A DNA stretch of 63,959 nt, the filler included, from Neolecta irregularis DAH-3 (taxonomy: Eukaryota), in the NCBI GenBank assembly GCA_001929475.1. It is 10 parts of 10 records of this genome, joined end to end, with 100 filler letters (N's around TTAATTAATTAA, not from the genome) between each part and the next. Parts side by side here need not be neighbours in the genome. Positions count along the whole stretch, not along the records: positions 1 to 20,082 come from LXFE01000853.1; positions 20,183 to 28,704 come from LXFE01000856.1; positions 28,805 to 31,700 come from LXFE01000857.1; positions 31,801 to 35,101 come from LXFE01000858.1; positions 35,202 to 46,474 come from LXFE01000859.1; positions 46,575 to 48,516 come from LXFE01000862.1; positions 48,617 to 52,051 come from LXFE01000863.1; positions 52,152 to 54,973 come from LXFE01000869.1; 2 more parts are not named here. One strand, written 5' to 3'. A program made the translations under genes and the position numbers. The first letter of the stretch is position 1. Every line of letters begins with the position of its first letter. Below are positions 10,450-61,105 of this stretch, piece by piece. Below the pieces are notes generated by a model that was not told where the DNA came from, searched no databases, and saw nothing but the letters and a program-made list of their open reading frames with translations.

Positions 10450-11409
10450 ATGCCTCCCTCCAAAATTGAAACGTTACCGACCGAGTTGCTTGCGGAAATT
10501 GTTCTTTATCTCGTTCTCCCAGATATAATTAACTTCACCCTTACCTCGAAAACAATCTGCCGAATTGTACACAGCCCGCCGACTTGGCTGCTCAAGATAC
10601 ATCATGATTTTGGACATTCAGAATCGGCTGAATTGTCTCTAGAGTCCCCAGCCAAGGATTGGGCTCTTCAGTATGAGCGCCTGCGTATATTGCTTGTATC
10701 ACTATCATATGCTGAACCAGTCAGTTCAACCATTGTATACATCTATCGCAGAGTGGCAGTTCGCTTGGATCGACAATCGATATTGGAGGGTAACAGATAC
10801 TCCACAGAGCCCTTTTGGAAAAACTCTGAATCTGGACAACCGTATTGTTTGGTGGGTTTCCGGGCAGAAAACCTTTCCAGTTCCACCTGGTCAATACAAA
10901 GTGACATGGGGTCTTCAAGTTTCTCCTCGAGGAATGGCTCAAAGCCCCAATCTCTTATCGGTTGGCATTCGACAAGTCAAATTCCGAGTCAAATGCCTCG
11001 ATTCTCAGGAATTTGTATCCTCGCAGGTGGAAGGATCATTGAGTGATATCAATGGATCGGAAATTAGAGACTGGACTGAAGTGTCGTTCAAAGGTGTACT
11101 TGATGTGCCGTTTGCCAATGTTACAACAAAAGAGCTGAGTAATGTTCAGTTTGAAGTCAGAGGCATTGCACGTACTCCTATTTTCATCATTTCTAAGCTT
11201 TATAGGAGGGTACAATCAAGATTGGACTTAATCTTGACTTTGTCAAACTTACTCGTATTTTGCATTGTGACGAAGAACCGGAACAAACTACTCTGCAGCC
11301 ATATGAATTTCAAAATGGAGCGCCAAAACTGAGTACCGGCTTAACGAATTCTAAACACATACAGCAATCCACAGGGATATGGTATCGCTTAGCAAGAATA
11401 TTCATGTAA
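10450..11409 (+). CDS. F-box protein with C-terminal PP2/Nictaba-like lectin domain (paralog 2)
   Basis: F-box LPTELLAEIVLYLVLPDIINFTLTSK; introns 10685-10724 and 11168-11205 (GC-AG) at positions equivalent to paralog 1; AWIDNRYW...SPF...VWWVSG...PGQYKVTW...DWTEV...VQFEVR...KIGLNLDFVKLT. Confidence 0.8.
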
Positions 11410-11626
11410 AGACGCCTTTCTATAGCGATTGTATTATTTTCCTGCATGTTGGCGTAATTGGATTGATTGCCCAAGCAACTCTAGCTCAAAGTTGCTTGGC
11501 ACAAGTTATGTATTAATGTGGCTACACGAAGATCTAGCTCCAACATTAATCAAATGAAACTGTAAGTACCGCACAATTCTGATACACAGCATGCAATATA
11601 TATATGCCCCAAATGAAACCAAAAGT

Positions 11627-14164
11627 TTATTCGCCTCGCAATAAATAAGCTGCCAGGGCCTCTTGATCTTCTAAAGAATTCAAATCACCAACTTGAAATG
11701 CTTTATTCTTTTTTGGCATATGGTGATCATCGAACCAATTGACCTTTCGTTTTTTGGTCTTCTCTTCATCGACTAGCACAGGGGGTGATTTGTCTTCATC
11801 ATTAGATACAGGTTGAACACCTTCATCCGAGCTCTCTTCTCGTTCACGAGCCTTTCTTCGTAAAATCTTCTCCCGATGTTTTTCTTTTGAATGTTGTTTA
11901 TCAAGTAAATCCTTCTCTTCCATATCTCCAGACTGAATTTTCAAATATTCTAATTTCTGACGTTCGGGTAGACCAGCCTTCAAAAAGAATTGTTCGTCTT
12001 GGAGTTCGTAGATGGGATGTGCTTCTCCTTCATCATCAAATACCAGCCTTGTGCCCTTTGGAGCGTTTTTTGCAATCGCCTTTTTGGAGAGGGCTTGTTG
12101 GGCCTTGCGTTTTGAGGGCGGCTTTCTCATCTGGTTTATTAGTTCCATACCGTGAACAAGTTTCTGTACTTCTGAAGGTTCTCTAATTTCATCTACAAGA
12201 TCATGATCTGTCCGTTTCACAGCCATGAAATCGTCATCAACATCTGCGTCAATGGTATCCTTGTTTTCTTTTATTAATTTCCCGTAATGCTCAGACAGAA
12301 TATCCTGATTGCGCCTTTCAAACATCCGATCATATTTCGTACGAATTTTAGCTTTATCGGTTCTTCGTTCTCTGCGAGACTGTGCAGAAGCTTCAAATTC
12401 TGGGGTATTTGTTGATGAATCATCTCCATCTGAACCAGATGATATTTCCGCGGCTGTTAATCTTTTGGTCTGAGTGTTGTTTTTGAGCGCTTTGGCTTGA
12501 CAAGTCTGTAAATATGAGCATCGACAGAGCGATAAAACTTACGCTTCCGAATTTAATTTTGGGCGCTCCTGCAAGTCCTAAACTCGCTGCATACTCTTCG
12601 AGAAGAAGATCTTGCATATTAAAGGTCTCTCTGTCCTTTTTCAAATAAATGCTTCGTATATACGATACAAAGGCCTTTTGTCCGAGATACTTGATCTCTG
12701 GATCCTTGAAACACATTGCCTGAAGTTGTTCCTTCACACTCAATCTTTTACTGCTCTTAATCGTAATCTTCTCGATTGGAACCTTTTTAGTGCATAAGCG
12801 TTCAACAAAACTGGATTCTTCGCCCGGACTCAACATCAACAAAGCCCGTCCGTTTCGTTCATATCTTGCAGTCCGTCCAACCCGATGAATATAAGTATCC
12901 GCATCCTCAGGAGCGTCTACCTGAACAACCCAATCCACTGCAGGAAAATCGAGACCCCGAGCAACAATGTCTGTTGAAAATAGACAAACCTGTTTTGAGG
13001 AAGAAAATCGAGCGGTAATTTCAGCTCTAGCGGTTTGCTTTTGCTTTCCGTGAAGATGGAGTAGCGGAATCCCGGGATGCATTCTTTTGAATGTCTCGTA
13101 TGCAAAGCGAACCTTTTATAATTAATCGATATCAAAATGGAAAATTGCCTGTTTACAGGACGAGAAGAAAACCAGAATCTTGCTCTTGAGATGAGTTTTG
13201 AGAAAAGCGAATAAAGTGTCTAATTTATTGGGCAAAGGAACAACGACATAGTGCTGTTGTAAGGTTTCAGGCGTGCTACTTTGTGACGCTTCATGAACAG
13301 CAACATATTCCGGTTCTTTCAAACTCAATCTTGCAAGATCACCAACACTTTTAGTTTGAGTAGCACTAAACAAAAGCGTTTGTCGATTGGGTGGGAGATT
13401 CTCGATAATCCCATCAATTGTTTTTCGAAATCCCATATCAAGAATTCTGTCTGCTTCGTCAAGAACGAGGATTTGCAAGTTGTTTGCTTCAAAACCAGCA
13501 GTCTGGTCCATATGTTGCAACATTCTCCCGGGTGTACAAACGAGAATATTCATCTTTGATAAACGATCTCGTTCAGTTTGTAAATCTTTACCGCCAATCA
13601 CTAATCCTGCTGAAAAGTCGTGCTCGCGGCCTACCTTTCGGAGAACTTGGAATATCTGAACTGCCTGAACCATATAAGCTCTCTAATTTCAAAACCAAAC
13701 AAACAAGTTCTCTTGTTGGAGAAATAATTAATGCTCCAAGACCATCGTGTTGGTTCCATTTTCGAACAAGAAGACCTTCAAGAACCGGAATGATAAAGGC
13801 CAATGTCTTTCCACTGCCAGTTCTAGCTGCCCCCAACACATCCTTTCCCTTTAATGCAAGAGGTAAAGCTTTTCGCTGGATATCGGCAAGGGTAACAAAA
13901 TGCGACTGTTTCAGGCCTGATTTGTCAAATTATATTCTGCCGCAAAGCGAAAATACCTTGGGCTGTCTCTTTGGATAAAGGCAACTCGCTGAATTTCGTA
14001 ATCTCTTTGCTCAAATCCTGTTTCAAATAAGCTGATATTCTGATTAAACCAGATCTTGCAAATTCTTCAATCCGCTGTTTCAGCCGGACTAATTCTGATT
14101 CCTCGCTTTGTCTTTTCTGCTGTCTTGCTTCTTTGGATCTTCCAACCTTGATGCGCCCGGGCAT
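11627..14164 (-). CDS. DBP4: DEAD-box RNA helicase Dbp4/Hca4 (DDX10)
   Basis: [67 protein letters not shown]; Dbp4-type tail ([19 protein letters not shown]). Confidence 0.96.
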
Positions 14165-14261
14165 TTAGATAAATCCTTTCTATTTCGGGAATAAAGTTGG
14201 GATTGTGTAAAAGAATAAAAATTTCGGGTGTCGATAATTGAGAATAATGATAAACCACCAC

Positions 14262-15054
14262 ATGCCAGATTTTCTGACCGAGAGTGTAAACGAACATCTC
14301 GACCCATTTATAAAAAGACTGAAGGCCTTTCTAGAAAAAGAAGTAGAATCTGGTCTTTTGAAACAGGTTCAAGAGAGAATTAGAGAAAGCCTCGATGTTT
14401 TACGGCAGGCATTGGATCGGTTCAGGCGAGTTTATCGGAAATAAATATTCTAAGACCACAGCTCCAAGTCAATCGCATTATCATTCAACGGAGGAAAAGA
14501 CTGTGAAGTTCTTCTTTTTCTATACCTGTATGTGCTTTTTCCGACAGATCAGCCAATTCCGACCCTTTTTATAACTCCCCAGCATTCGTTTCCTCAAGTA
14601 GAAAAATTCGTAAACGAATGTTCGGCAAAGTACCATTTGCATCTTTCCAGAAAGCCTGTTCCAATGAAACAAGCATTTGCCGAATATCTCAAAGAACACC
14701 GGATCATCAAAGCAGTTCTAGTCGGAACCAGACGTAACGATCCATTTGCGCAAGACCTGAAATATATTCAACCAACAGACCATGGCTGGCCGCCTTGTGT
14801 GAGAATTCACCCAATCATAGATTGGCAGTACGCCGAGATCTGGGAGGTAAATTTTCATATACAAGCGTCATATTCAGACATAGTTTCTAAGGTTTTTCGA
14901 CATCCCGTATTGTTCGCTCTACGACCAAGGATATACATCCCTGGGCGGTACAACAAATACAATACCGAATCCCTCACTCCAGACCATTGATGGAAATTAT
15001 CTTCCTGCATATCATTTGAAAGACCAATCTCAAGAGCGGCTGGGACGCGACTAG
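14262..15054 (+). CDS. FAD1: FAD synthetase (PAPS-reductase family)
   Basis: SFNGGKDC, VGTRRNDP, PTDHGWP..RIHPIIDW, YCSLYDQGYTSLGG, ERLGR*. Confidence 0.93.
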
Positions 15055-15845
15055 AGATATCCTCCTCCCGAAAACATGTTGTTTCCTCGATCCCTTGTAC
15101 GCATCGCCAACTCATTTTTTTGTTTAGACGTCATATGGCGGCCGTACAAGTCTTTTTCTTTGTCGAACGGGTGTGTGGATGGGTTATCATTATAGCGTTT
15201 CTGTGAGGACTGGTGTATTTCGACCAGGGACTTGGGGTGGTTTGTAGACTTCGCTATTAGCATTTAGAGCGATAAATAGATATGCATTGTGAGTTTCCAC
15301 ATCCCTTGGTGTTGTTTTTGCCATCGACTGACGTTGTTGCTTTTCATTTGGAGCACCATTTTTGGGAGTTTGTGTCCATAAAGACTGATCAACGTCACCA
15401 GCTACGGCGTATTTTCCAGACTTTCCGGAATTAAATGACCGTGCTTTTAATATTGACGGATCCAGTTTTCCGCTCCAATCTGCTCGACTAGGTGGTTTCA
15501 TCATCCATTCTTCTCGTTGTAATGTCTCATTTTTTTCCCGTGGCTCGGGCGATATTTTACGCTGAGCACGTTCCTCGAATTCTCTTATGGCTAGTGATTG
15601 CGCATCTTCCTCCTGCAAAATCAATTTCTTTTGGTTGGCTAGTCACAGACCGGTATTTCACCATCTTTCGGTAGTTGTGGTCCAAAGTCATCATCGCTAG
15701 AACTATCTGTTTCGTGGTCTTGGTTGCTTGGAGCAATCTTTTTAGCAGTTGGTCTGTCTTCTGGTCCGTCGATATCCCTCTTCCTTTTGGACAGTTCATC
15801 TCTGGCGATTTGCAGATGTATAGGCAACCGTGGTCCGATTGGCAT
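15051..15845 (-). CDS. GPALPP1/DUF3752-like protein
   Basis: MPIGPRLP, SSSDDDFGPQLP, QREEWMMKPP, SLWTQTP, KSLVEIH, PFDKEKDL, FSGGGYL* match the DUF3752 layout; two short introns. Confidence 0.8.
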
Positions 15846-16067
15846 AGTATATGGCGTTGATCTTGAGATTCCAACATAATCATTCTGGCAAATACAAGAC
15901 AAGATGAAAACATGAGAACGAACCAGAAGAATAAATAAGAAAAGCTATGTATAGACCCAGTGACTGAAATTATTCTTCAGTCCTCGATGTTTTGCCGACA
16001 TTTCGTTTTCAGCGGCAGCATTAACCTGCTCATTTTATATTTGACTAACCGCTGAAACTTCTTCCAC

Positions 16068-16917
16068 TTATGAAAAAGCTTTTTTTCTCGACGAATGGGT
16101 TTCCCTAACATTATGGGCATGATGAATTAAGAGTGTATCTATACCCATGACATCGCGAACGGTCTGTTCAACCGGTGGCCGGCTGTAGATCTCAGCTGAG
16201 AGATCTACTTGTTGTTCCTCTGGCAGTTCAGAAGAAGTAGAGCAGTTGGACATTTCTATTTCTTCATGTAAACCGCAGCCTGTTCTTGCGTTAGTAAAAA
16301 TAGCGTGAAAGCGAATGTAGCCTACTAAGGAGACTCCGTTCTTCTTCGTCGTCGAGACGAATGTCGATGATATCAATCGTGTTCGTGATAGGAGAAGATC
16401 GGACTTTGTACACAAAGCTCTCGTGCCATTGATAATATATACTTGCAAGTTCTCTGCGATGTAGAAATAGGTCTGGTGTAATGTCTAGTAAGAGCCCGAC
16501 GTTTTCCAGGATCGCGGTACATGTATTGTATAATATGGCCAAGGGATGGTGCAATTCTGGATGCTGCAGATTGAAAAGTCGAGCCTTTTGAATAAGACGG
16601 TCTGTTAAAGTGATGACCGAATAAAGAGGATCTTTGATTTTGGCTTCCCAGGCTTCTTGATGCTCCTCCTTGGAGAAGAATGCAAAAATCACACCTCTTG
16701 TAACATCTCGGAGCTCGTGGTACGAGTTTAGGATTTCGTTGTAGTTTAGGTAGTGATATACCTGCCGTTCAAGAGCATCTATATCGCTAATCGATACGCA
16801 CACGATCATACGAAATGTTTCTGCAAGGTCAATATCTGCCATATGGATTGAAAAAGTGCGGGCTGGAGGAGAAAAAGAAAGACTCTCAAGTTGCATATCA
16901 AAAGCCCAGGTATGCAT
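16068..16917 (-). CDS. Hypothetical (orphan-looking) protein, probably two exons
   Basis: 208-aa ORF joinable to the 16068 frame by a ~45-nt GT-AG intron with a CTAAC branch site near 16280-16325; no recognised motif. Confidence 0.5.
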
Positions 16918-17320
16918 GGTAGATGACGTCTTTAACTATCTCCCATCTCTGAAGAATGGGAGCAAGATATGCCTTTGGACAGTGGCTTATGTGTGAATTT
17001 CCATGAAAATGCAATACTTCAGCTGTGTTGTTGGTATAGTATTTGACACGATCGTGTGTTACTCTCTTTTGGTAAAAATATATCGATCGAAAGTGATAGC
17101 TATAGACAAATCGAGCCGAGTTTACAAATGCAGAGTAACTTTTGGTACCTGGTAGTCAATCTTATTTTGTTGAAAACTCCAGTCCAGTTTACAAAATGAC
17201 CATAAACTGATCTATTGCTGGCTGTTTATGTCGTTTATCAAGTCGTTAGGAGGCCAACAATTTTTTCGCGCTCAAGTAGACCTCCACAAAAGCTATTCTG
17301 CCAATCCTATCAACCAAGAC

Positions 17321-20074
17321 ATGGTCCATCGCGCCGAATCTCCCGCTGACAGCGAGCATGAAGTCGATATTTCAGAGTGGTTAACAGCATCTGCAAAGCA
17401 AAACACACAAAAATTTATTTCTCCAGGAGAATTGCTTCCACAAGACAGCGATGAGGATGAAGAGTTTATATCCAACCAACGACTTGTCGCAAATCGAAAA
17501 ACCAAAGGTCAGAAGATATTTAAAGGCGGTGCATTTCAGACTATGGGACTGAATCAGACTCTACTCAAGGCGATCACACATAAAGGGTTTAAAGTTCCAA
17601 CGCCGATTCAGCGGAAAACAATACCTTTGCTTCTTCAGGGGCGGGATGTGGTCGGTATGGCCAGGACAGGGTCTGGTAAAACTGCTGCTTTTGTTATACC
17701 GATGATTGAAAAATTAAAAACACATACTGCAAAGGCAATACTACAAAGAGTGAACTAGTTGACAATTCAGGTCGGAGCTCGGGCTATAATCATGTCACCG
17801 TCCCGAGAACTTGCAATACAGAGTCTTAAAGTAGTCAGAGAATTGGGCAAAGGTACAGATTTGAAATCTGCTTTACTCGTTGGTGGAGACAGCCTTGAGG
17901 ACCAATTTGGCTTGATGGTCAATAATCCAGATATGCAAGTCGCATTAGTATTCTTCCATTTGATGTTTTAGTATCATTGCGACTCCTGGTCGATTCCTAC
18001 ATCTGATGGTTGAAATGAATTTGGATCTCCGGTCAGTCGAATACATATGCTTTGACGAGGCTGATCGGTACAAAACATCTAGTTCTTGCTAATATACATA
18101 GCCTTTTCGAAATGGGTTTTGCTTCCCAGCTTTCCGAAGTTCTATATAAACTCCCAGACTCACGGCAAACTCTTTTGTTTTCTGCAACACTGCCAAAATC
18201 ACTCGTCGAGTTCGCTAAAGCGGGTCTACAGGAACCCATACTCGTACGATTAGACGTCGACAATAAAATCTCTACAGAACTAGAAAGTGCATTCTTTAGT
18301 ATCAAGTCTGCTGATAAAGAAGGATCATTGCTGTATCTCTTACAAGAGGTCATTCAAATACCTCTAGATCTCAATGAACAAGAGCAAAATATTATGACTG
18401 ATGGGAAGAAAAAAAGGAAACACACACAAGGCCAATATCAAGCAACTTCTCAATATTCAACAATACTCTTTTGCGCAACCAAGCACCATGTAGAATATCT
18501 TTCTCGGTTCTTAACTCTAGCTGGATATAAAGTATCATTGGTTTATGGATCACTCGATCAAGTAGCGCGACGCGCTCACATTGAGGCATTTCGAAATGGT
18601 CGTTCAAATATTTTGATTGTCACGGATGTTGCAGCTCGAGGAATTGACATTCCCCTCCTTTCCAATGTCATAAATTATGATTTCCCTGCGGAACCTAAGA
18701 TATTTGTCCATAGAGTTGGCCGTACAGCTAGAGCTGGGAGAAGAGGTTGGGCATATAGTTTTGTTCGTGCGGAGGACGCTTCATACCTTCTCGACCTACA
18801 ACTCTTTCTCGGCAGAGGGATTGTATCTACTGGTAAAAATGTCGTGGATTACACCAGGGATGTTGTTTTAGGCTGTATGCCACGAGAAGAGGTGGAGAAA
18901 TGCTCTGAGTGGGTTACCAAGGTAATGGGCGAAGATGCCGAGTTGAGTAGTTTGAAAGGAGTCGTTGGAAAATCCGAACGTTTGTATCTGAAGACGAGGC
19001 CAAATGCAAGTACCGAAAGCATCAAGCGAGCGAAAAAAGTGGTTGAATCGAGAGCGTGGTATACAGTTAATCCTCTGTTGGGTATTATATCCCATTTCAC
19101 TACTCTGCCTGACTTGTAGCATGTAAATCTTCCGATGCAAACGAAATGCGTGAGAAACTCCTCGCTAAAGTTTCGGGATTTCGTCCCTCCGAAACAGTTT
19201 TCGAGATTGGCTGTCGAGGACTGAAACGAACGGAGGCCGCTGATGTGATGAGACGTCGAAGAGATCTGATTACACCGGCAGCTCGGAAGACAATTGACAA
19301 TGAACGACAAAACTCTGGAGACGAAACACTACCATCTGAAGATGAAGACGTCGATCTAGATGGTGTGTTCTCAATATCTATGTCAACTAGGAAACGCAAA
19401 AAGCCAAAGATGATCTCATTCCGCGATAGCGAGAATTTCATCTCGCACTATGCTCCCACTAGTGCAATCGAAGAGTCTGGTTATTCAATATCAAAAGGTA
19501 CAAATAAATCGTTTGCAGAGGCTGCTCGTGGTGCAACAATGGATCTCGTCCACGATGAGACAGTAGATCAATTCGGAGCTGCTCAGCGTATAAAGGGACA
19601 GAGATGGGATCCCAAGAAGAAGAATTTCGTCAACAAAATGAACGATGAAGACGGTTCTAAAGGTGGTGCACCAAAGATGATTAGAGGTGAAAGTGGAGTG
19701 AAGATTCCAGCGACTTATAAAAGTGGACGGTAACTCTTAATTTAAATTGCCGTATCCTGATTACCAGCTTTGAAGCTTGGAGATCTTCTCATAAGACCAA
19801 AGTCCCACGAGTTGGAGACGAAGAATCAAACAGTCAAAACACAGCGATTGGAAATGGAAAGAGATTCAAACATCGCAAAATCCAAGCACCCAAACTACCT
19901 GACAAAGCACGAGATGATTATCATTCACGCAAAAAGAGAGTGCATGAGGCCAGGGAGAAGGGATTATATGGAAAGGCAAAGAGTGAGCTTAAAAATCTCT
20001 CTGCTATTCGGCGTGACAAGAGACTTAAAGAGAAAAGGAAAGCCAAGAATGCTAGACCTAGTAGAAAGAAGTAG
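17321..20074 (+). CDS. DBP10: DEAD-box RNA helicase Dbp10 (DDX54)
   Basis: [56 protein letters not shown]10CT region [28 protein letters not shown]; ends KNARPSRKK*. Confidence 0.97.
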
Positions 20075-20082
20075 GACCTAAT

Positions 20083-20182
20083 NNNNNNNNNNNNNNNNNN
20101 NNNNNNNNNNNNNNNNNNNNNNNNNNTTAATTAATTAANNNNNNNNNNNNNNNNNNNNNNNNNNNNNNNNNNNNNNNNNNNN
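20083..20182. other. Assembly spacer (44N-TTAATTAATTAA-44N); also at 28705, 31701, 35102, 46475, 48517, 52052, 54974, 61696
   Basis: Identical 100-nt linker with stop codons in all six frames, present nine times. Confidence 0.99.
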
Positions 20183-22065: not shown

Positions 22066-23199
22066 ATGCCTATGACGAAACACCCATGTCTTGCTTGTAA
22101 ACAAGCGAAAACCAAGGTTTGCATTACTAGGTCGAGGAATACTGACTAGGTGCAAGTGCGACGGCGTTCGTCCTTGTTCTCGATGTATTAGCCGTGAACT
22201 GAGCTGCTATAGTCCAATAGACGCCGCTTGTGATGGATGCTTTGAGAGACCGCGAGGGAGAAATGCATATTTCCATCGACTTAAATTCCTAACTGAAACA
22301 ATAGTGTAACCTTCGATATCCGTGTGGCGAATGTGGAAAGCGCAGCGAGAAATGCTCGTACATCCGATTTGCAAACCATGGAATGGATACACCTCTGAAT
22401 TCATCTCTATATGGATATGATACTCGGTATCATAATCTGCAGGACAGTTTGACAGTTGCGGCCGAACTTCAGACTAAAGCAAAAGGAAGTTGTGTCAAAA
22501 TATCGACCGAGCCCTATTATCTTTCTCCTACGTCACAAGAACAAATCCCTATTTACCACGAGCTGGTAGATGTTCATACACTTATTTCAAGATCTCATTT
22601 TGAAATCCAGCCATCTGATTTTAATTTGTCGCCACTCAACGAGACATTCGAGATCGATCCAGCAGCCAACATCTTTTGCCCCAAACCATCAAGTTTCGGC
22701 GGCCTTACGGCTACAGATGACGCCAATATGTTTGCTTTCACCTTTGGATATTGTCAGGAAATTCCATGCCGACGATCTCCCCATCCACTTGATTTTTCAC
22801 GTATGGCGCAGTTGACGTTTCATGTAAAATTTAATGAATATTTTTTCGGCACGCTAATCCGCAAAGTATCCAAGTGTCAAGCAAGCTTTGTTGGCGTATG
22901 GTGCATACAGCCTTGCAATGCGGATCACGGATGTCCATGCCAAGAATCGATATTTGGAGCTTGCGCTTTCCTACGAGAGCATGGCTATCCGACTGCTTTA
23001 TGGGACGCTACATATTGCCGATGGAGATGAGGCACACAAACAAACCTGTCTCTTTCTGCATTTCAAGGCTGTGCGTTCATTGTTTGGGTGGCTGCAGACT
23101 AATGAGTCAGGGTATGGAACGGGACGAGTGTCGACATGTAATATCGGGTCTCGGATGGGCTTATTTCACTGGGTAGATGCCAAGAGTAAAATCTTCTGA
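22066..23199 (+). CDS. Transcription factor with two tandem Zn2Cys6-like clusters
   Basis: CLACKQAKTK|CDGVRPCSRCISRELSC, then CDGCFERPRGRN|CNLRYPCGECGKRSEKC; introns 22117-22156 and 22265-22304; third exon region YPSVKQALLAYGAYSL..YLELALSYESMAIRLL; 3' end uncertain. Confidence 0.8.
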
Positions 23200-28641: not shown

Positions 28642-29396
28642 CCTATTGGCTCCTTCCTCTACGGAGCCTCATCCGTTCCGTACATCTCCTCATTGAGCTC
28701 ACTANNNNNNNNNNNNNNNNNNNNNNNNNNNNNNNNNNNNNNNNNNNNTTAATTAATTAANNNNNNNNNNNNNNNNNNNNNNNNNNNNNNNNNNNNNNNN
28801 NNNNATGGGCTCTGTTGAGTCACTTCTAAATATTCTTTACTTGCTGCATTTAACTGACAGACAATACAACATGGCAATAATAGCCACTTGATATTCTCTC
28901 AGCTAATTCCATAAGGATACTCAAGTTCAAGGTAAGTTTTTTCTATAGCACCATGGTTCAGATCTTGATGAGTCTTTAGAATCCAATTGTATGCTGTATG
29001 CATTATTAATAGTGTTGCTGGTTCCTGTAGAAGTGGATCACGTAGAACAGGCATCTCGGTGGGTACCCATAAGCAAAGTAAACAAAGGTTCGAGTTGGTG
29101 TGGTGGCGGTGGTTATTTCCCTTTACGTTTCGCGCGGAACAAATGCAATATTGAGCAATTGAGTGGTTGGGATATATTTACGATTAGCAAGTGAATTTTC
29201 ATTCCTGCAAAAGAATAAATTTGTTTTCCATGCTCTGCCAGTAATATTAAATTCCAGGTTTTGTTTTGTTTGTTTAAGTGACATATTGGAAAAGAAAGAA
29301 ACGACTCGGCTTAATGATGAGGTGACGTCGGTCCTAGAGATAGATTCGACTCCAGTTAATCAAAATCCTCATCATCTACATGGTTATCAATGCAGG

Positions 29397-31409
29397 ATGA
29401 GATCATTGTACAGTGCGCTCTTCAGAGACAAAGTACTGTTTCCGACAATTAGGTCTCGAAGGGACACACTCATCGCTCAAACGGAAGGATCCATTGATAC
29501 TTTGAGAGAAATTACTAAAAAGGGCGAAGGTATTTGTGATGAGACACTGAGATCTGTTTGTTGGCAGGTATTCTTTCCTGAAAAGATATAAATTTACAAA
29601 GGGCCTTTCTATTATCGACGAGCGATTCTTTCTATGAATTGGATTTATTAGTGCAGGGACGTAGAGCACAATACTCTGAGCTCAAATTTGAACTCATAAC
29701 TTCGCGGAAACACCCTCAAGACGAAGTTGGGGATTTGAACCAAATACATCCACTGTCTTTACATGAATCTGTACGTCAATGGGATCAATATGAAAGCTGA
29801 TCCATATAGAATCCGTGGCGTAGGTTCTTCGAGGATGAAGAATTACGCAAAGTCATTGACCAGGTTTGTCCGTTCGACCACCACTGCAACTCACCTTGCA
29901 GGATATAAATCGAGCGTTTGTTCTGGATTCACTTCTCCAGTGGCTGACCAAGCCCAGGTTTCCTGAGGACGATTACTTTCGAGAAAATTCGACGCAATTA
30001 TATTTGCGAAACGTCTTGTTTATCTACAGCAGAATTAATTCGGATTTATCTTATCGTCAAGGAATGCATGAATTACTGGGAATCCTCTTGAAAGTTGTGG
30101 AAAGAGATGCGGTGTCACTAGAATTCCTGGAACACGACTCGTTCACCTTGTTCGAGGCCCTAATGAGTGGAATGAAACGGTGGTTTCTTGTGAATGAAGA
30201 GCTTGTAAGCTGCACCCTTTGATTTCATACATACATTCATTAACAAGCAAGGAATCTCCCATTACAAAATTGTGTCGGAAGATTCAGTTTGAAGATCTGC
30301 CTATCTTTGACTGTATTCTAGCAAAACACCTCGAGAAATCTCAAGTTGAGCCAACTATGTATGGAATGTAATGACTTGAATCATTATTATCTACTCATAC
30401 CCTAGACGATGGATGCGAACGCTATTCACTTCAGAATTTCACGATGCCGAATTGCTGCATTTATGGGACCGCATATTTTCTTATGATCCTTCTCTTCAAG
30501 TTACACCCTACATTGTCTTGGTAATGCTTATTCAGATCCGAGATGAACGTAACAAAAGCTGTCGGTTCTGAGGTACGCTGATCATCAGTCCTTCGTTCAA
30601 ATTTCAATGGCATTATCACCAAGATTATCAGGTATAAATCTCCATCTCCATCAATGCTTGTTGAAGAAGCCATGGAGCTTTTGCAAAATCCGTCACAAAC
30701 AACCGGAGTCAATCTAATTCGAAAATATAGTACTCTTCGATATGCCGAAGGCTCTTCCTCCCCATCTTCTTCTGCTCCTTCTCCTCCTCTCAAATCAAAT
30801 CCACACTCTCGCTTAAATAGCAAAGAATCTCAATCAGGTGCTGCAAAGACCATCAGCGGAAGACCAGGTTTTGATAAAACAACATTGTTTACGTTCGACG
30901 AAGGATGGAAAAGTGCTACCAATTGTTGGATGGATTCTACGTTCATTCCTGGTCCTGAAGATCTACGGATGCATACCTACAGAAAAGACTCGAAAGATCG
31001 GCGACTGATGCGCGAGAGAGATGAGATGCTTGGCGAAATTCTCGACATCAGCATTCTGAAACTCAACGGTGTGGCAGAAGAAAGAAAAGATGCAATAGCT
31101 GGTGTGAAGCATGTACGAGATGTTTTGCATAACGACGCATCCTTGGATACGGATTTACTTCGAAAAATGAAAGAGAAAAGAATGGGTAGAAGCAAGATTT
31201 GGATCCCACCTAGACTCCCTGATCACCCTCAGAATGCAATGACTATAGAGAGATCCCCGATATCAAATAACTACGATGATCTGTACTCAAATTCATGGAC
31301 ATCGGTCACGAAAAATCAGCAAATTTGGATGCTAGGAGATGAGGATACTCGGAAACCAGCTTCTCGAAGCACTTCAAGACATAAACATGATAGGAAAGCT
31401 GCATCTTAA
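29397..31409 (+). CDS. TBC-domain Rab GTPase-activating protein (TBC1D5/Gyp6-like)
   Basis: LRSVCWQ, HPLSL...PW..FFEDEELRKVIDQDINRAFPE..YF, YRQGMHELL, LEHDSFTLF, RWMRTLF..EF, LHLWD. Confidence 0.88.
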
Positions 31410-32766: not shown

Positions 32767-34188
32767 TTAATTCTCTAAATATTTCTTCACGGGAGCACCG
32801 ACTTCCTTTTCAAGGAGCTAAAATCAGCAGGTTACGTCCACTTTATGCATACCAGAAATGAATCATGTCCAAATAATGAAACGTCTTCACCTAATTCGAT
32901 ATGTTTGGTGGTAGTATTCCCAGCATCGTGCAAACCCTGCACAATTTCCGTCTGTTGCCAAGCTGGAAATAAGATATCACTTTGAACGCCAAGGACAAGG
33001 ATATCATGGTCCACAAGCGGTTTCAACCCATTTGCAAGGTCAATTTGTGGAGAAATGGTTGTTTGTTCTGGCGGCAAGTATGTATTTCTCTCCACGTTAC
33101 GTTTTAACGACGACATGTTTGATTCAGAGAGGTCGAATAAATCCATTGCTTTGGAGATATATAGTAGTGAATTCGCATCATATTCAAGACACCATTTCTC
33201 CCCCTGGAATAAGGCGTCAACGTACCATTCATTTTTACAAAGTGGAGTACCTGATGATCTAGATACTCTTCAATGGCGAAATCAGGGCACAAAGCAGGTG
33301 TATTTTGGCTTCGTCTGCGACCGAAACGGTTCTCCCATTCAGGTCCAGATCGATATGTGATTGTAGCAATTTCCCGAGCGAGTTTCATGCCAACATGGGG
33401 TGGTATCCCATCATAATAAAAACCTCTATTGAAATTTGGATCGGCCATCAGAACTTTTCATTAGACATACAGAAAAGTAGGAGCGTAATGCCTTGTCGTT
33501 GGGTATGTCGAAGGGCGATACTATAAGGATGACTTTTAGCACATCCACTGATACTTATGATTCGACCGACTCGACTTGGATTCATAACACCTGCTGCTAA
33601 ACTTTGCATTCCACCCATACTACTCCCGACACTAGCAAACAATTTTTGAATACCGAGAAAGTCGAGCAATTCAAACTGTCGTCTAACCATATCATTTAAC
33701 GAGATAATTGGAAATTTCGTGGCGTAAGGTTTGCCGTCTAGTGGATTGATAGAGCTGGGACCGGTACTTCCAAAACAACCACCAAGAACGTTTGTACAAA
33801 TTACAAAAAAGTGGTTTGTGTCAAGTGCTTTACCTGGCCCGATGAATTTCTCCCACCAACCCGGTGATTTATTCTTATCGTGGCTTTTTGCGTGGGATGA
33901 GGCAGAGAGGCCTGTATGCAGTAGAATTGCATTTGAAGCAGTAGAATTGAGACTACCCCATGTTTCATACGCGACTTTTAAAGAGGGAAGGGATCCTCCG
34001 TAATCGAGTTGGACGGGGGAATCGTGCAAGTAGAGGTTATATCCCATGGGAACCGAGTAAGCCGGATCTGGACCGTGGGAAAGAGCCGCGGATCGAGAAT
34101 CAAGCAAGTCTAGACAGGGAAAAGAGAGCGCACGGGCGGCAATAGAAACGTTACGCAGCCAAGGGACTTGGCGGCAGCGGCAGAGCAT
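32767..34188 (-). CDS. Serine O-succinyltransferase/homoserine acyltransferase-like (Cys2/CysE type), likely mitochondrial
   Basis: [49 protein letters not shown] nucleophile elbow, FGHDSFL; Arg-rich N-terminus. Confidence 0.9.
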
Positions 34189-35339: not shown

Positions 35340-36400
35340 TAATGACCGCCGATATTTTCTATCCTGTTGATTATGAGGTTTCCATTGGAGCCTTGATTGA
35401 TAGAATTTTGCAAGAGCGGTTATTGACGGCAAAATCCCACCTGGAAAGATCTGATATATCAGCTTTTGATAAAAGTGATCAAAGCTACGAATTTTCGGAT
35501 GAGGCCGACACCTTTAGAATATTGCTCGTAACGAGTTTCCGGCATTGTAATCCCTTGAATTACAGCAATTCCACCATCAGCTTTAAGCAATTGGTCGATA
35601 ACTTTGAAATAAGTAGGCAGAAACGCCTTTCTTACACTTTCGACCATCTCAATTGAACAAATCTTATCATATCGCTTCACCGGTACATGATTTCGATAGT
35701 CACAAAGTAAAACAACAATTTTATCTTGGTATCCTTTCTCACGGGTTCTCTTTTCCGTAGTTCGATTCTGATCAGAGGAAAGGGTTATAGGGATAACCTG
35801 GCACCCAAATTTTTCGACTGCTCTAATCGCAAAACTCCCCCTTCCAGTTCAAATTTCAAGGACATGATCAGTTTCTTTGATCCTTGCAGAATCAATTATT
35901 CGATCTAACTTTCTCATCTGGGCATCATAGAGAGATCCATTTGGAAACTCTTTATTCTAAATAGCGGATGAGTATGTCATATCCTCTGAAAGAAAAGCTT
36001 AAAAAATTTCATTACTCAAGTCGTAATGAGCAGCTATATTGTTTCGCGAAAGACACATACCAATCGTCAAGAACGGTCTCTTTGATCTATAGATGGCGAG
36101 GTCTCGTGCGCACGAAAGCAAAGTATCTGCAGAATCGACAAGTTGATAGAAAGCGCTCTTATCGTAGGGGGGCTTAGTTTCATGGTCATTCATTATTATG
36201 ATGTGTGAGTAGCTGGTTCGTCTGATTGGAACAGCCCATAACGATAGCAAAATTCCATGATGCCAGCATTCATGGCTGTTCATTGCGTGCTCGGCAAATT
36301 CTTAATCTCAAAGGGGGTCGGACGATATACGCCAAAGCAGAGAGACTCGCATGCAGACACCTTCCTAAGTCTCATCTTACATAATAACGGGATAAGGACC
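35340..36400 (-). pseudogene. Decayed cyclopropane-fatty-acyl-phospholipid synthase (CFA/UfaA-like) methyltransferase
   Basis: Fragments NNIAAHYDLSNEIF, VLE..GG.FAIRAV, YDKICSIEMVE..LPTYFKVIDQLL..GGIAVIQGITMPETRYE.Y, FPGGILPS in different frames, with stops; 5' boundary approximate. Confidence 0.8.
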
Positions 36401-44259: not shown

Positions 44260-46431
44260 ATGAGTACCTTGCCGTTTTTGCCTCGTCTTAGCCAATTTAC
44301 ATCTGCAAAAACATTTCCACCAAAACCTGTTCGAAGATATGCAGCACAGCCTTTTTATCCACCGAGAACTCGCATCCAAAAGATGCTAAAGACTTCGAAG
44401 CGATTCGTCGGATACGGTTCTGCATTTATTGTTGTTTCTGTCGCAGGACTATTTGTATACGATGCGTGCACATATCCGGGATCCAGAAATTTTCCGGTTC
44501 CGATAAATCCACTTGCATTGAATCCAAGGACTGGAGGACCAAAGAACTTGCCGATTGCAGAGCTCCTCCTAGACGATGTCAACGACGAAGATGTCAAAAA
44601 ACAGAAACTGGTCATTCTGGGATCTGGATTTGCAGTATAAATACTGGCTGAAAACCCCAATTGACGCATAGGCAATTTCGTTGGCAAAGACTTTGGATGC
44701 GGGAAAATATCACGTCGTTCTGATATCCCCGTCAAATTACTTTTTATTCACTCCATTGCTTCCAAGTGCTACTGTTGGGACAGTAGAACCGCGGTATAAA
44801 CTCGAGAATATTCTGCATTTTTACTGTCTAGGTCAATCATCGAGCCCGTTCGAAAGATCGTCAATCGATGCTTAGGTCACTATCTCGAGGCATCCGCACT
44901 CGGCGTTGAGTTGAAGGATCGTCTAGTCGAGGTTGTTAGTTATCATGAAGGCAAAGAACGCAGATTCTATGTTCCCTACGATAAACTCGTTATTTCAGTC
45001 GGTGCACAAAGCAACACTCATGGTGTTCCTGGTCTTGAGAACTGCTATTTCTTGAAGACTTTGCCTGATGCAATTCGCATGAGAAAACGAATTATGGGCA
45101 ATTTTGAAAAGGTAAAAATGATCTGCATGGTTGGTACTACAATATAGGCATGTCTACCGACGACAAGCCCCAAAGAACGTAAGAAACTACTCAGCTTTGT
45201 GGTTTGTGGTGCTGGTCCTACCGGTGTTGAATTTGCAGCCGAGTTACATGATATGGTCAAAGAAGATCTAGTCAACTTTGTATGTTGCTGCATTTCCAAC
45301 TACCGGCCTGACATCAGTTTCCAAAACTTCTAAGACAACATCTTTCTATTCATATAATCCAGTCTCAAGATCACATTCTAAACACTTACGATGAGAAAAT
45401 TAGCAAGTACGCCGAGTCCAAATTTGTCAAGGAGGGAATTGATCTGATAACAAATGCTCGAGTCAAAGAAGTCCAAGACGACCGCGTAATTTATACTCAA
45501 AAGCAGCAGAATGGGCAAATTATCGAGAAAGAAGTCGAAGCGGGTGCTATCTTATGGTCAACTGGTCTCGGTAAGTTCGTGCTACGAGTACATGTCATGA
45601 TACTTTAGCCTTAACGCCCCTCACACATTCAATCGTCTCTTCAATCCCAGAGCAGAGGAATAAAAAAGCCATAGAAACGGATTCTCATCTACGTGTTCTC
45701 GGAGCTCCAAGTGGCGAAGTCTACGCTATAGGTGATTGTGCCACAGTCCAAAATAATATTTCATCCCGTCTGGTTCATCTTCTTCAAAGTATAAATGCTG
45801 CCGATGGAGAAGACTCTAAAGTACAACTATCGTTCCAGCAATGGCGAAATTTAGCCGAGAGGGCGAGAAGGAAATTTCCTCAGGCCTCAGTTCATTTACA
45901 GAGACTGGATAAATTATTTTTACAATATGATAAAGATAACTCGGGAACATTGGATATGAAGGAACTTGAGGCATTATTCAACCACATCGATCGAAAGTTG
46001 ACTAGTTTGCCAACAACTGCACAAAGAGGGTCACAACAGTACGTCTTGTCACATGTAATCTAAACTAACGTTGTAGAGGGTAACTATTCCAAGCCCCTTC
46101 AAGACTGACGATAAGTAAATACCTCGGGAAGAAACTCAACAAGCTTGCCGACGCCCAAATTAATATAGATCCCACCCAATTCTATGACGGAGATCTCGAT
46201 GATACAATCTACAAACCCTTTGATTTTCACAATCTCGGAAGTCTGGCGTATCTTGGCGATGCAGCAGCCTATGATTCTGGCACAGGAACTACTTTTGCTG
46301 GAGGTTTATTAGCGATGTATCTATGGAGATCAGTCTACTGGAGTGAACAAATATCTTTCCGAACTCGATGTTTGCTAGCTGTCGACTGGATGAAGCGAAG
46401 TATTTGGGGGAGAGACCTATCAAAGTTTTAA
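44260..46431 (+). CDS. Type II (alternative) mitochondrial NADH dehydrogenase with EF-hand insertion
   Basis: [48 protein letters not shown]-hand [25 protein letters not shown]. Confidence 0.94.
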
Positions 46432-50211: not shown

Positions 50212-51394
<1,183 letters not shown>

Positions 51395-51437
51395 ATTGGT
51401 ATTTTATGTAGTCTCCAATGTATCTGGGGACATTGCC

Positions 51438-51484
51438 CATGATACGAATATCATTGATACGAATATCATTGATACGATTATCAT
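51438..51484. repeat. 15-bp tandem repeat GATACGAATATCATT (~3 copies)
   Basis: Direct repeats 3' of RPL4. Confidence 0.7.
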
Positions 51485-51899: not shown

Positions 51900-52051
51900 A
51901 TACATAAATAGAATAAATAGAAGAAACGAATAGATACAAATAAATAGAAATGATGAAATAAACGTGAAATAACGATGAATAAACGTGAAATAACGATGAA
52001 TAAACGATGAAATAACAAAGAGTAAACGATGAAATAACAAAGAGTAAACGA
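51900..52051. repeat. A-rich minisatellite (AAACG(T/A)TGAAATAAC-type units)
   Basis: Degenerate tandem units running into the gap. Confidence 0.75.
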
Positions 52052-53987: not shown

Positions 53988-54752
53988 ATGACGACGAAAC
54001 CGACTCTGCGAAAATCGCTCAAAGCCATCTTGAATACAGTCCCACAAGCGTCCATTCTAAACCAATGTATTTAATAGAGAAGAGAATCTTGACAAGCCTA
54101 TAGCGAAAACCGTAATGAAATGTTTGTTTAATTCGGTTTCTTTCGAATCGTATGATCATATATCTTGCTATCTTAGCATGGAGAAAGAGCTCCAGACTCT
54201 TGGGATCATCGAGAGACTTTTCTCAATGGGTACTTTCTATATTACTCCACACTTATGGATACGTAGGCAAAAAGGTCTATGTTCCTCACATCACCGGAGA
54301 TTATATGAAAATGGTGCCCTTATACTCTTCGGACTTGCAACATCTCAAGCGAGATAAATTGGGAATACCAGTACTCCCAACCAGAGAAGGTGAGAATGTT
54401 TTCTTTCCAACTTGAACAAAACAGCTGTTCAACCACACATTCTTGATTTGATCATCGTACCGGGCTTAGGGTTCGATATTGATTGTGGTCGACTAGGCTA
54501 TGGCAAAGGTTATTACGATCGATATTTCAGCTTGATCTTGGAGGAATGTCAGAATTGGGGAAAGAGGAAACCGGCATTCGGTAATCTCTAGGTAAGCTTG
54601 ACGCTCACATGGGAGTTGGTGTTGGACTGCTGGAACAGATCGTTGACGAAGTACCGATGGAAGCTACAGACTGGAGATTGGACGGCCTTATCATTGGAGA
54701 TGGACGTCTTCATTCAAGGGATCCTTTAGCTCCTATAACAGATACTAGGTGA
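53988..54752 (+). CDS. FAU1: 5-formyltetrahydrofolate cyclo-ligase
   Basis: KPTLRK, ISCYLSMEKELQT, KVYVP, LDLIIVPGLGFD..GRLGYGKGYYD, VPMEATDWRLD. Confidence 0.92.
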
Positions 54753-56864: not shown

Positions 56865-57497
56865 ACATGAACCGATGAAATGAGTGAGAGAAGTGGGAAA
56901 AGAGTTGAGCCACGCCCTAAAGCTTTAGGCCTGGTACATTTGGTTCCCCTTTTGACAAATAATGAAAGGTTTCAGATCGAGCTTAATGGTTTTTAGATAT
57001 GATACGATCATCAGACGTGAAAGCTAGTGAAGCCAAGTTTGCTGGAGTGAATTCTTTCACAGCACACAATCAGGGCCATACCTCGGGACAGGTGTAAAAC
57101 ACGAGAATTTGTACGCCAATCTCGTAATAAAAGTGCCAAATCAGTCTTTGGATTTCAGTAACGATAAAAAGAAAGTTGCTCTGGAAATGATTTCCTAGTC
57201 AAGGCTGTCTATAGGCCTGAAACGAACAAAGTAGAGATATCAAAGGGTATTCTAAAGACTAGTGTTCAGTCATAGAAAGGCGGAATAGTACTTGTAGTAT
57301 CAAATACACTGATTGAAAATATCGCTCCAAGAGTGAAAGATCTTAGATATGGTCAATTGAGACCGATGTCCAGAATCCATGCTATATATCAGCACAGCAG
57401 CTAATTCCACTGAAATATCATAGCTAATGATTACATGTACTTTGTTGGGGGTCAGACGTAACTATATAATCAGAGGCAATGACCTAGCGCTTGTGAC

Positions 57498-58637
57498 ATG
57501 TCTATCACCCCTTTTAACGCAAGTTTAATTCCCGACCTTTCTGGGAAGATTGCCCTTGTTACTGGCGGCAATACGGGCATTGGTTATATAACCTGCCTTG
57601 AACTTGTCCGACATAATGCCAAAGTTTATCTGGGGGCTCGAAATAAGGACCGTGCTCAGGAAGCGATCAAGCAACTCAAGAACCAAGGTTTGCTGAATTC
57701 CATGGTATTTGATTCGAATTGCAGTCCCAACTGCACAGGTCGAGTGGTTGTCACTTGACTTGGGAGACTTGAATCGGGTCGAGGAAGCAGCGAGCAACTT
57801 TAAAAAGAAGGAAAGTAGACTTCACCTTTTGATCAATAATGCCGGGGTTTGATTCTCTCAGGTTGTCAGTATGCTTATATCAAGATTATGGCCACTCCGT
57901 ACGAAACGAATAAAGATGGCATCGAGATTCAATTCGCGACCAACTATATCGGGCATTTCTTTCTCACACATCTACTTCTCCCGACGCTTTCCTTGACCGC
58001 TAAAGACTCTGCTGCTCACCAAGTTCGCGTTGTCAATATATCCAGCCTGGCCCATAACATGGCTCCAAATGGCGGAATTAATTTCGATGATCCGAATAAC
58101 ACTGGACGATTTTTCCTCAAACCTTGGGCTCGGTATTGAAACAGACTCCTTTTCTAACTCGCCTAGATATGCACAATCTAAACTGGCAAACATCCTTCAT
58201 GCTAATTACCTTGACCGGCACTACAGTAATCGAGGGATCGATTTTATTTCCTTGCATCCTGGCAGCATTAGTACGACATGTTGTAGTTCTTGCTGATTTA
58301 AGAAAGTGATTTGATTCGAGGTCCTGTGTCTTACTGTACCACAAGACTAGGAATTTTCTAACGATCAGCCTGCATTTTCAAAGTTATCTACTGGTTTGCC
58401 TTTTTTGTCTTTATCACACCGGATCAAGGAGCGTTGACGACTTTGTTTGCTGCAACGTCGCCAAAAGCGGAGTCGGGAAAATATTATATTCCATTTGGCA
58501 AAGAAGGAACTATTTCTTCTTGTGCGGGTGATGATAAACTTCAAGACGTATGTGTCGCTATTTATATATTGACAATTCAGAGACTTTATGAATGGACTTG
58601 CACCAAGCTCAAGTCTCTTGGATATATCCAAGATTGA
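57498..58637 (+). CDS. Short-chain dehydrogenase/reductase (retinol-DH/WWOX-like)
   Basis: TGGNTGIG, LINNAG, QFATNYIGHFFLT, RVVNISS, YAQSKLAN, LHPG. Confidence 0.93.
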
Positions 58638-58670
58638 ACATCGCAGTCAATACGTATCTAGTTTTATGGC

Positions 58671-59078
58671 TTATTTCGTATTACTCAACAGATTTGAAAG
58701 TTTGATGCTGTCTTTATTCTGTTTCCGCTGAAACTCTCTTGTTTTCCAATGCTCGTGATTTACAACTGGAGAGTCACTTTTCTTTGGATCTATCCGTTTT
58801 CCGCCGTTGGAGATGGTCCATAGCCACGATGGATATTCTGATTCAGGTAATGCAACTGGATCTGACCCGAGCTTGAGAATATTGAGACCTTTGAGAATAG
58901 TTCCCTCTGGGCATGAACTCGTTGGTATAAGAGAGCTTGCTTCTGGCTGTCAACTATAATAATATTTGGATCTACCAAAAGTGCGCGATGCCGAGTATAA
59001 TCTGTTGCGAATTCCGCTTGGAACATTTATTCTGGGAATTATTTGTAAAAGATGGGCAAATGGTCCGACTGCGGTCAT
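58671..59078 (-). CDS. MRPL37: Mitochondrial ribosomal protein mL54 (MRPL37); absent from the ORF track
   Basis: Presequence-like exon 1, then SSCPEGTILKGLNILKLGSDPVALPESEYPSWLWTI...RKQNKDSIKLSN. Confidence 0.88.
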
Positions 59079-59125
59079 TTAGGAGGTTGAAATCTGGACA
59101 GCCAGTCACTAAACAGCAGCCTTCC

Positions 59126-61105
59126 ATGGGACTTTTGACTGCAGTTGGCGCTCCGTTATCATGGCAAGACACCAAGAAGCATGCTGACCATGTCCGGTAC
59201 CATGGAATCACTCAGTTCATCAACATTTGGCGATCTGCCAAGAATAAAGAACGGGATGCGCTGATGTGGGGCGATGAAGTACGACACAAATAACACGAGA
59301 TTGATACTTAGATTGAATACCATGTCATTGCATTTGACGACGAAAAGAAGAATGCAAAGATATGCCTGCGATCATCCGAGATTTTGCAGCAATTGAAGAG
59401 TCAGCAAAGTGGTGCATTATTCCATGAAGAATATGGGAGGTACATGCTGGAGTCGACTCCGGGGACGCCTTATACAGGGGGACTACAAGATCTTTTGACA
59501 GTGGAAACAAACATGCGTAATAGGTGTTGTTACGACTTGACCAACGCTAAGTGTTGAGACGAAGGGTGGCGAAGCAGAGTATGAATGCGGATGAATATCC
59601 GATTACGATACCTGCCTTTCCGCGCCTTGGAGCGCCTGGACAATTCACGGAACCGTATTTCGAGCCCAGCGGTTCGATTTCGCGGAGCCTGTTTATTCCC
59701 GATGAGATTATCAATGCGCATTTTCGATTTCCAACGCTGACTGCTAATATCCGGGAGAGAAGGAAGAGTAAAGTTGCTATGAATGTGCCTGTATTCGTTG
59801 ACACGAATACGCCTCGGCCGTTTATTGACGCTATGATTCCGGATAGATATTTGTATCCCGAAGACGACGACTCGAGAGCCGGAGCTGCAAAAGAAGATCA
59901 CATATATATGGACGCAATGGGATTTGGGATGGGCTGTTGTTGCCTGCAGATTACGTTTCAGGCCAAGAATGTGATTGAAGCCAGAAGGTTGTACGACCAG
60001 TTGGCGCCTGTTGGACCGATTATGCTTGCTTTGACAGCTGCGTCGCCTATCTGGAGGGGGTATCTTGCCGACCAGGACGCTCGATGGAATGTGATCGCGG
60101 GGTCTGTGGATGATCGGACTGAGGAGGAGAGGGGATTGAAGGTGTGTTGGTTGGGGTCGCTGCTGACAAGAGGCACTGGAGAACGACCGCTTTGTGATTC
60201 CCAAGTCGAGATACGATACGATCTCGTCGTATATCTCTCAAGATCCACAGCTTCGAAAGGAGTACAATGACACGAATTTGGTGAGAGATGAATCGATACG
60301 GACACGACTGCTTGAACAAGGTGGTTGTAATTTTTATTTTGCTAACGGCAGGCATTGACGAGCTCATGGCCGATCATATATCGCACTTGTTTATCCGGGA
60401 TCCCCTGGTAGTGTACTCTGGGCTTCTTGAACAAGACGACGAGGTGTCTTCGAATCATTTTGAGGCATGCTACCTGGATATTGGGCTTACTATAGAACAT
60501 ACAGTCGACCAACTGGCAGCACATGCGGTTCAAGCCGCCGCCGCCGGGGGGCAATATTGGCTGGAGAGTGGAGTTTCGCAGCATGGAAGTGCAGCCGACT
60601 GATTTTGAGAACGCGGCATTTTCTGTGTTTATTGTTCTTTTGACGCGGGCTATACTCTCGTTCCGGCTGAATTTCTACATTCCTATCTCGAAGATTGACG
60701 AAAACATGAGGGAGGCGCATTGTCGGGATGCGGCTGTGGGGGGGCAGTTTTGGTTTCGAAAGGATGTATTTGGCCCGGGACCTGAGACGGACGGCGACAA
60801 GATGGGTATCGACGAGATAGTCAACGGGGGGACGGGGTTCCCTGGGCTGTGTCCTCTCATTACGCGGTATCTGGACTCTGTGAACACGGACATTGAGACG
60901 CGGTGCCAGATCGAGCAGTACCTGGGGGTGGTGTCGAAGAGGGCGAGCGGTGAGTGCGGTGTGAGCGGAGCTGACTGCAGGGACTGTTCCGACGGCCGCG
61001 GGGTGGATGCGCGAATTTGTGGGGGAGCACGAGGACTATTTGCACGACAGCATTGTAAGCCAAAGGATAAACTATGATCTTTTGAAGAAGATGTGTGATG
61101 GATAG
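59126..61105 (+). CDS. GSH1: Glutamate-cysteine ligase catalytic subunit
   Basis: MGLLT..G.PLSW, MWGDEIEY, EYGRYMLESTPG, HIYMDAMGFGMGCCCLQITFQ, HFENIQSTNWQ, IGWRVEFRSMEVQPTDFENAA. Confidence 0.97.

Follow-up and report, generated by a model that had tools for sequence, protein, structure and literature searches.

GC-AG introns are frequent in a 64-kb stretch of the Neolecta irregularis genome

Introduction

Can a fungus begin one intron in ten with GC rather than GT, and if it does, how is the 5' splice site read? The question is raised by a stretch of 63,959 nucleotides (nt) from Neolecta irregularis DAH-3 (assembly GCA_001929475.1), analysed here as a whole and referred to as the window, in which a first-pass annotation had noted about ten introns with GC at the start and AG at the end (GC-AG introns) among roughly 110. 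GC donors usually carry a near-perfect flanking consensus, and the annotation had pointed to several that lack it, proposing relaxed recognition of the 5' splice site, possibly through a modified U1 or U6 or a length-based definition of introns. According to two published surveys, GC-AG makes up 1.3% of introns over 61 species (PMC3033335) and GT-AG 98.7% of introns in fungi (PMC7072748), in line with the level of about 1% that the annotation had taken as normal. Here we ask whether these introns are real, how common they are in the window, and which explanation accounts for them best.

Results

Removal of GC-AG segments restores conserved proteins

Each of the ten segments of the first-pass annotation has GC at its start and AG at its end and connects two open frames, and with two that we added, 12 of 12 GC...AG segments interrupt a coding frame. 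Their removal restores the protein with residue-exact agreement to homologues at seven of the 12 (13113, 14018, 14426, 17735, 17935, 33454 and 60465, all among the ten); at the other five, frame, Pfam or motif evidence supports the junction, and for the three of these noted before (11168, 15249 and 22265) it comes from frame, Pfam or the end of a spliced contig. Five of the six sites at which only a GC donor had been said to restore a conserved motif (13113, 17735, 17935, 33454 and 60465) are contiguous to the residue in homologues.

Four of the exact junctions lie in two RNA helicase genes. In DBP10 on the plus strand, the 36-nt intron 17735-17770 (GCAATA) corresponds to an exact 12-residue gap in both orthologues shown, from Saitoella and Taphrina, and the join reads KMHTAK/TGARAVIM, while removal of the 37-nt intron 17935-17971 (GCAAGT) yields NPDIIIATPG, which is uninterrupted in the same two species. 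In DBP4 on the minus strand, the 36-nt intron 13113-13148 (GCAATT), which contains in-frame stops, matches a 12-residue gap in two of two orthologues, with the join FLSSCKQ/VRHAFETF. The 42-nt intron 14018-14059 (GCAAGA; minus strand) of the same gene is in frame and stop-free, and both orthologues have a gap of exactly 14 residues there. A 32-nt GT alternative at this site was rejected, as it would put the conserved ELPLS exon out of frame.

The 36-nt intron 14426-14461 (GCGAGT, plus strand) lies in a gene with a PAPS-reductase domain, presumably an FAD synthase, and has two stops inside. An exact 12-residue gap is present in six of nine homologues; two carry insertions of their own, and one alignment begins downstream. 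By reading of the sequence, the only nearby GT donor (32 nt) breaks the frame and was set aside. Both this site and 14018, for which the annotation had merely preferred GC, are thus placed by gaps of the expected size.

Solved structures fix two further junctions. In the homoserine O-acetyltransferase gene (minus strand), the 38-nt intron 33454-33491 (GCATTA) separates an upstream exon that aligns to residue 211 of PDB chain 3vvl (204 of 2b61) from a downstream exon that aligns from residue 214 (208). The residue space at the join fits a split-codon V and the next L, and Pfam Abhydrolase_1 positions 115 and 117 flank it. In the glutamate-cysteine ligase gene (plus strand), SSNHFE runs to residue 438 of PDB 3ig5 and NIQSTNWQ continues from 439 (425/426 in the orthologue P0438), with Pfam GCS position 168 on both sides. 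Since the exons abut in both proteins, the intron is the 31-nt version, 60465-60495 (GCATGC).

The remaining five were placed by other means. The 38-nt intron 11168-11205 (GCACGT, plus strand) joins frames of 175 and 67 codons in an F-box/PP2-like gene, and a piece of a spliced contig from sequencing run X2, described below, starts exactly at 11206, right after it; in-frame GT alternatives of 50 or 62 nt were rejected with far lower scores. The 37-nt intron 15249-15285 (GCATAT, minus strand) interrupts a DUF3752 gene in which the reading frame changes between Pfam positions 1-56 on one side and 89-145 on the other, and its GC donor gives the top intron score of the 16 dinucleotides (4.5, against at most 0.9). 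The preference for GC that had been stated at these two sites thus has indirect support. In a Zn2Cys6-type gene, the 40-nt intron 22265-22304 (GCATAT, plus strand, CTAAC branch motif) makes a forced change of frame onto the 241-codon exon that starts at 22305; it scores best among all dinucleotides and uses the sole canonical-like in-frame donor for that forced acceptor, which is again indirect support.

Of the two additions, the 38-nt intron 29564-29601 (GCAGGT, plus strand) joins 133- and 65-codon frames in a RabGAP-TBC gene where an in-frame GT donor is absent. Its split codon gives the W of LRSVCW, which we take to be the RxxxW motif of the TBC domain; searches of Pfam (expectation value up to 10) and PDB with the flanking exons gave nothing usable. 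The other, 7369-7403 (35 nt, GCTCTA...TTTAG, plus strand), is a probable GC-AG intron in the tubulin cofactor D gene: Pfam TFCD_C positions 99 and 100 lie in different frames on its two sides, an in-frame GT donor is lacking, and the segment carries a TTAAC branch motif.

Public gene models avoid the GC donors

We compared the NCBI models of DBP10 (17228-20074, plus strand) and DBP4 (11627-14164, minus strand) with these junctions and found all four GC introns checked, in the two genes, to be mis-spliced. The DBP10 model, 'ATP-dependent RNA helicase dbp10 [Neolecta irregularis DAH-3]', with 99% identity to the largest exon, has a 21-nt GT intron in place of 17735-17770, by which five residues are gained, and reads through 17935-17971, so that the DEAD-box exon is lost. 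The DBP4 model uses a GT donor 21 nt upstream of that of 13113-13148, losing VFFSSCKQ, and keeps 14 intronic residues at 14018-14059. The public models are wrong at these sites because GC donors were avoided. Splicing errors in both models also occur away from the GC sites: in DBP4 the GT intron 13665-13704 is read through in another frame, with 21 residues lost, and the in-frame intron 12131-12169 is retained. No annotated N. irregularis GCS protein was present among the 120 matches listed, which were of at least 339 amino acids.

These comparisons bear on whether the GC introns could be products of gene modelling. Such cases are documented: according to the re-annotation report, the first gene set of Heterorhabditis bacteriophora had 8.9% GC-AG introns, which became 0.8% on re-annotation (PMC5906903), and the apparent rate was similar to the one found here. 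Our own gene finder also produced false GC introns, five of which were dropped on inspection. In N. irregularis, unlike H. bacteriophora, the public models avoid GC and homology backs the GC junctions. Seven junctions are exact to the residue against solved structures or orthologues, and models restricted to GT delete or insert conserved residues at four of four sites, so we regard a modelling artefact as very improbable.

One in nine curated introns has a GC donor

Introns were counted with a gene finder trained on the window itself, using codon statistics, donor and acceptor matrices, intron length and branch motif. The curated set holds 108 introns, 96 with GT and 12 with GC (11.1%, 95% confidence interval 5.9-18.6%), which exceeds a fungal reference rate of about 1.07% with a binomial p of 2e-9. 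The frequency given by the first-pass annotation, about ten of about 110, is borne out, and the abundance of GC-AG introns in the window is confirmed as an observation. When the finder was run freely over the two strands, the best donor after GT proved to be GC, with nine introns and a score gain of +28, against zero to six introns and at most +14.9 for the other 14 dinucleotides. Naive scans that joined open reading frames over all donor dinucleotides lost the signal in the background.

A run on the mapped genes, in which in-frame stop-free introns were disallowed, gave 92 GT and 16 GC introns before curation. Curation dropped five GC calls and added three in-frame introns with outside support, 1354-1392 (GT), 12131-12169 (GT) and 14018-14059 (GC). 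Three of the dropped calls gave way to GT introns: 54574-54615 to 54581-54615, which recovers a conserved C-terminus; 58265-58302 to 58271-58302, which yields HPGSIKSDL; and 16285-16321 to 16280-16325, a 46-nt intron to which the boundary of an X2 piece points. The other two, 10372-10408 and 29145-29187, made implausible N-terminal extensions. GC calls at 6945-6980 and 45863-45901, in frame and stop-free, had no support and were likewise excluded, as was an in-frame GT call at 3019-3057 that is left unspliced in X2. The GT-AG intron 16280-16325 (minus strand) has a perfect TACTAAC branch motif and exceeds the usual length of 35-41 nt; the X2 piece ending at 16325, from which it was inferred, leaves its position ambiguous by one base.

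The introns could be real and yet unrepresentative, with a local cluster or sampling noise lifting a genome-wide rate that is only modestly raised, to about 2-4%. Eight of the 12 GC introns fall in the first 20 kilobases (kb), two genes have two each, and all come from one window. Nevertheless, they are spread over ten genes on five of the joined contigs, and even a count of ten in 130 would give p=1.6e-6 against 1.07%. We consider clustering or chance improbable as the explanation.

GC introns resemble the GT introns of the window

GC and GT introns were alike in length, at 31-42 nt (median 37) and 31-65 nt (median 38), respectively, with 88 of the 96 GT introns at 34-41 nt. A yTrAy branch motif lies within the last 22 nt of 57 of 96 GT and seven of 12 GC introns, and the looser nTnAy is found in 85 of 96 and 11 of 12. 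Of the 48 introns of the first training set, 29 contained yTrAy, where shuffling would give 11, and the motif mostly lay 6-10 nt upstream of the 3' end. U12-type introns, as described in the survey text, have an ATATCC-type 5' splice site and a CCTTAAC branch site (PMC3033335); neither was found in any of the 12 GC introns.

The GT donors are themselves degenerate (n=96), with G at -1 in 61%, A at +3 in 67%, G at +5 in 41% and T at +6 in 46%. The poor downstream consensus reported for several GC donors (GCATTA, GCAATT, GCAATA and GCATAT) is present in the intron sequences as stated, and only three of the 12 GC donors match five of six flank positions of the AG/GCAAGT type. The rule that GC requires a near-perfect donor is therefore not obeyed here, but mild compensation persists: over six flank positions, GC donors match the consensus at 3.58 on average and GT donors at 2.81 (p=0.018). 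The proposal of relaxed or length-based recognition is upheld in part. Degenerate GT donors, tight lengths and the branch motif favour it, and the flank compensation of GC donors speaks against it.

Composition offers no explanation. The G+C content of the window is 39-45% across 4-kb steps, that of the genome is 44% according to the genome paper (PMC5309816), and a composition-driven excess is associated with values above about 64%. Because the introns have 38% G+C and C makes up 37% of their interior pyrimidines, composition is not the driver of the GC excess. T at +2 is still favoured, less strongly than elsewhere.

A changed splicing machine might instead read GC almost as well as GT, through an altered U1 or U6 small nuclear RNA (snRNA), U1C, Luc7 or Prp8; one example would be a purine change opposite +2 that allows pairing with U as well as with C. 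The use of GC donors with poor flanks (GCAATA, GCATTA and, twice, GCATAT) in essential genes fits this idea. Against it, GT still outnumbers GC by 8:1 although C accounts for 37% of the intron pyrimidines, and Aureococcus and Micromonas, two GC-AG-rich algae, have the canonical AUACUUACCUG at the 5' end of U1 (PMC3033335). The window contains no snRNA genes by Rfam, and ARAGORN was also empty. We judge an altered machine unlikely, if a little less so than a local cluster.

Contigs of run X2 are spliced, and neither run shows variants at the noted donors

Sequencing contigs of two runs were compared with window positions 83-20082. Those of X1 are DNA contigs with a word depth of about 400 and may be the assembly's own data, so they are not independent. 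Those of X2 contain 51 intron-sized joints; all 15 listed of these skip 35-41 nt with GT-AG ends (CT..AC for the minus strand), and therefore we take X2 to consist of spliced contigs. They also cross neighbouring genes on both strands, which, together with the 51 intron-sized deletions, means that X2 behaves as an unstranded transcript assembly from a very compact genome.

X2 record 10 covers 16325-17081 and 11206-12130, with 468 letters fewer than the genome in between. The 12 curated introns in 12131-16325 total exactly 468 nt, and four of them are GC introns (13113, 14018, 14426 and 15249). The same bookkeeping on a control interval, 2592-3184, gave 191 nt, equal to the five listed joints of RPN11. 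The 468-nt match is a consistency check and no proof of any single intron. Within the same region, 12131-12169 (minus strand) is an in-frame, stop-free 39-nt GT-AG intron in the C-terminal region of DBP4; a spliced X2 piece ends exactly at 12130, and Taphrina DBP4 has a 13-residue gap nearby.

Base-call or assembly errors, with T read as C, or a correction at the RNA level, were another conceivable source of the GC donors, and the former had been named in the first-pass annotation as grounds for rejecting them. X1 and X2 show 17 variant places in the 20 kb compared, and none is at the seven noted GC donors in that interval, with the reservation made above on the independence of X1. It is implausible that twelve errors arose independently at one and the same position of the intron, and we give this explanation almost no credence. 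A separate difference was seen at 10086-10117, where contigs of both runs depart from the window sequence with loose ends on either side, which suggests an assembly difference of about 30 nt upstream of the F-box/PP2 gene.

Other features of the window

About ten contigs make up the window, with nine 100-letter spacers between them, each made of 44 N, TTAATTAATTAA and 44 N. The spacers start at 20083 (to 20182), 28705, 31701, 35102, 46475, 48517, 52052, 54974 and 61696. The sequence is gene-dense: about 30 genes were mapped, including EF3 and a Zn2Cys6 protein, both in keeping with a fungus, with a Pfam scan whose input was all 663 stop-free segments of at least 45 amino acids in six frames. 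Near the start of one contig, at 35780-36100 (minus strand), a CMAS-type methyltransferase frame has three in-frame stops at conserved-looking positions (NEIF*AFL, SSAI*NKEF and LEI*TGRGSFA); it may be a pseudogene or poor-quality sequence at the contig end.

Discussion

In the window, removal of GC...AG segments is needed to obtain conserved proteins, and the GC introns match the GT introns in length and in the placement of the branch site. We consider it probable that these are genuine U2-type GC-AG introns, at about 10% here against about 1% in other fungi, and that they go with relaxed, length-based recognition. Like ordinary U2-type GC-AG introns as the surveyed literature describes them, they have GC and AG ends, a U2-type branch motif and the lengths of the organism's own GT introns; unlike those, they are about ten times commoner, and several have donors without strong flanks.

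Several points weigh against this reading. Three of the ten noted sites and both additions have no residue-exact homology. No GC joint occurs among the 15 listed of the 51 X2 joints, and the kind of run X2 was itself guessed as 'DNA?'. In a forced-path control, each of the 15 other dinucleotides filled the GT-less junctions with 6-23 'introns', and GC was set apart by total score alone (+68, against at most +44.5). The denominator comes from our own gene finder and curation, and that finder made false GC calls; it is the softest figure, as several regions with weak coding signal have no model and the control separates GC by score alone. The first contig has 42 modelled introns (eight of them GC) against 51 X2 joints. 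Base pairing also still matters, as the mild flank compensation of the GC donors indicates. Finally, the sample is 64 kb only, and the genome-wide rate may differ.

How GC donors could be tolerated may be outlined as follows. An intron would be recognised as a unit of about 37 nt, with much of the information lying in the distance between its 5' end and a yTrAy branch site that precedes the AG by 6-10 nt. The 5' splice site would contribute little through its pairing with U1 and U6, because even the GT donors are degenerate. A change from T to C at +2 would then be nearly harmless, so it could persist and accumulate. Such a scheme could operate without a GC-rich genome, and the snRNAs need not have changed; given the canonical U1 5' end in GC-AG-rich algae, a changed U1 is not required. 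Our more specific proposal, that the Neolecta spliceosome reads +2 loosely, either through changed U1, U6 or Prp8 contacts or through strict measurement of the unit of about 37 nt, is a tentative one that may well prove wrong.

Other lineages depart from the usual rates. According to Iwata and Gotoh 2011 (PMC3033335), GC-AG introns reach 39.6% in Aureococcus anophagefferens, 22.2% in Micromonas pusilla and 7.7% in Chlorella sp.; the excess was called 'an enigma' and attributed partly to composition, the genomes having 65-70% G+C. On that account the algae and Neolecta share an excess of GC donors that the major spliceosome handles, and the algal excess is lineage-wide; Neolecta differs as a fungus whose introns measure about 37 nt and whose G+C is ordinary. 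In the copepod Eurytemora affinis, as stated in the report on it (PMC5714493), GA and GG donors make up about 12% of introns. It shares with Neolecta a class of non-GT donors near 10% and compromised automated gene models, and it differs in its dinucleotides and its lineage. We found no published report of Neolecta GC-AG introns, though supplements of the genome paper may hold intron statistics; the main text of that paper (PMC5309816) has no mention of intron, splice or GC-AG. Neolecta joins the GC-AG-rich lineages as an unusual case, being fungal, of ordinary composition and with ultrashort introns.

In the GC-AG-rich lineages known so far, algae with 65-70% G+C, composition confounds the cause. 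Neolecta, a fungus with 42-44% G+C whose introns are about 37 nt long and whose donors are degenerate, separates composition from donor reading, and the role of +2 therefore becomes testable. As about 10% of introns start with GC and a gene has several introns, a considerable part of the proteome may be wrong; studies of fungal multicellularity and of intron evolution make wide use of it (e.g. PMC7940399). If +2 is indeed read loosely, a large share of the published Neolecta proteins would be mis-spliced, Neolecta would be the first case, among fungal lineages and among genomes of ordinary composition, in which one in ten introns starts with GC, and this 'living fossil' fungus would be a natural mutant for the proofreading of the 5' splice site.

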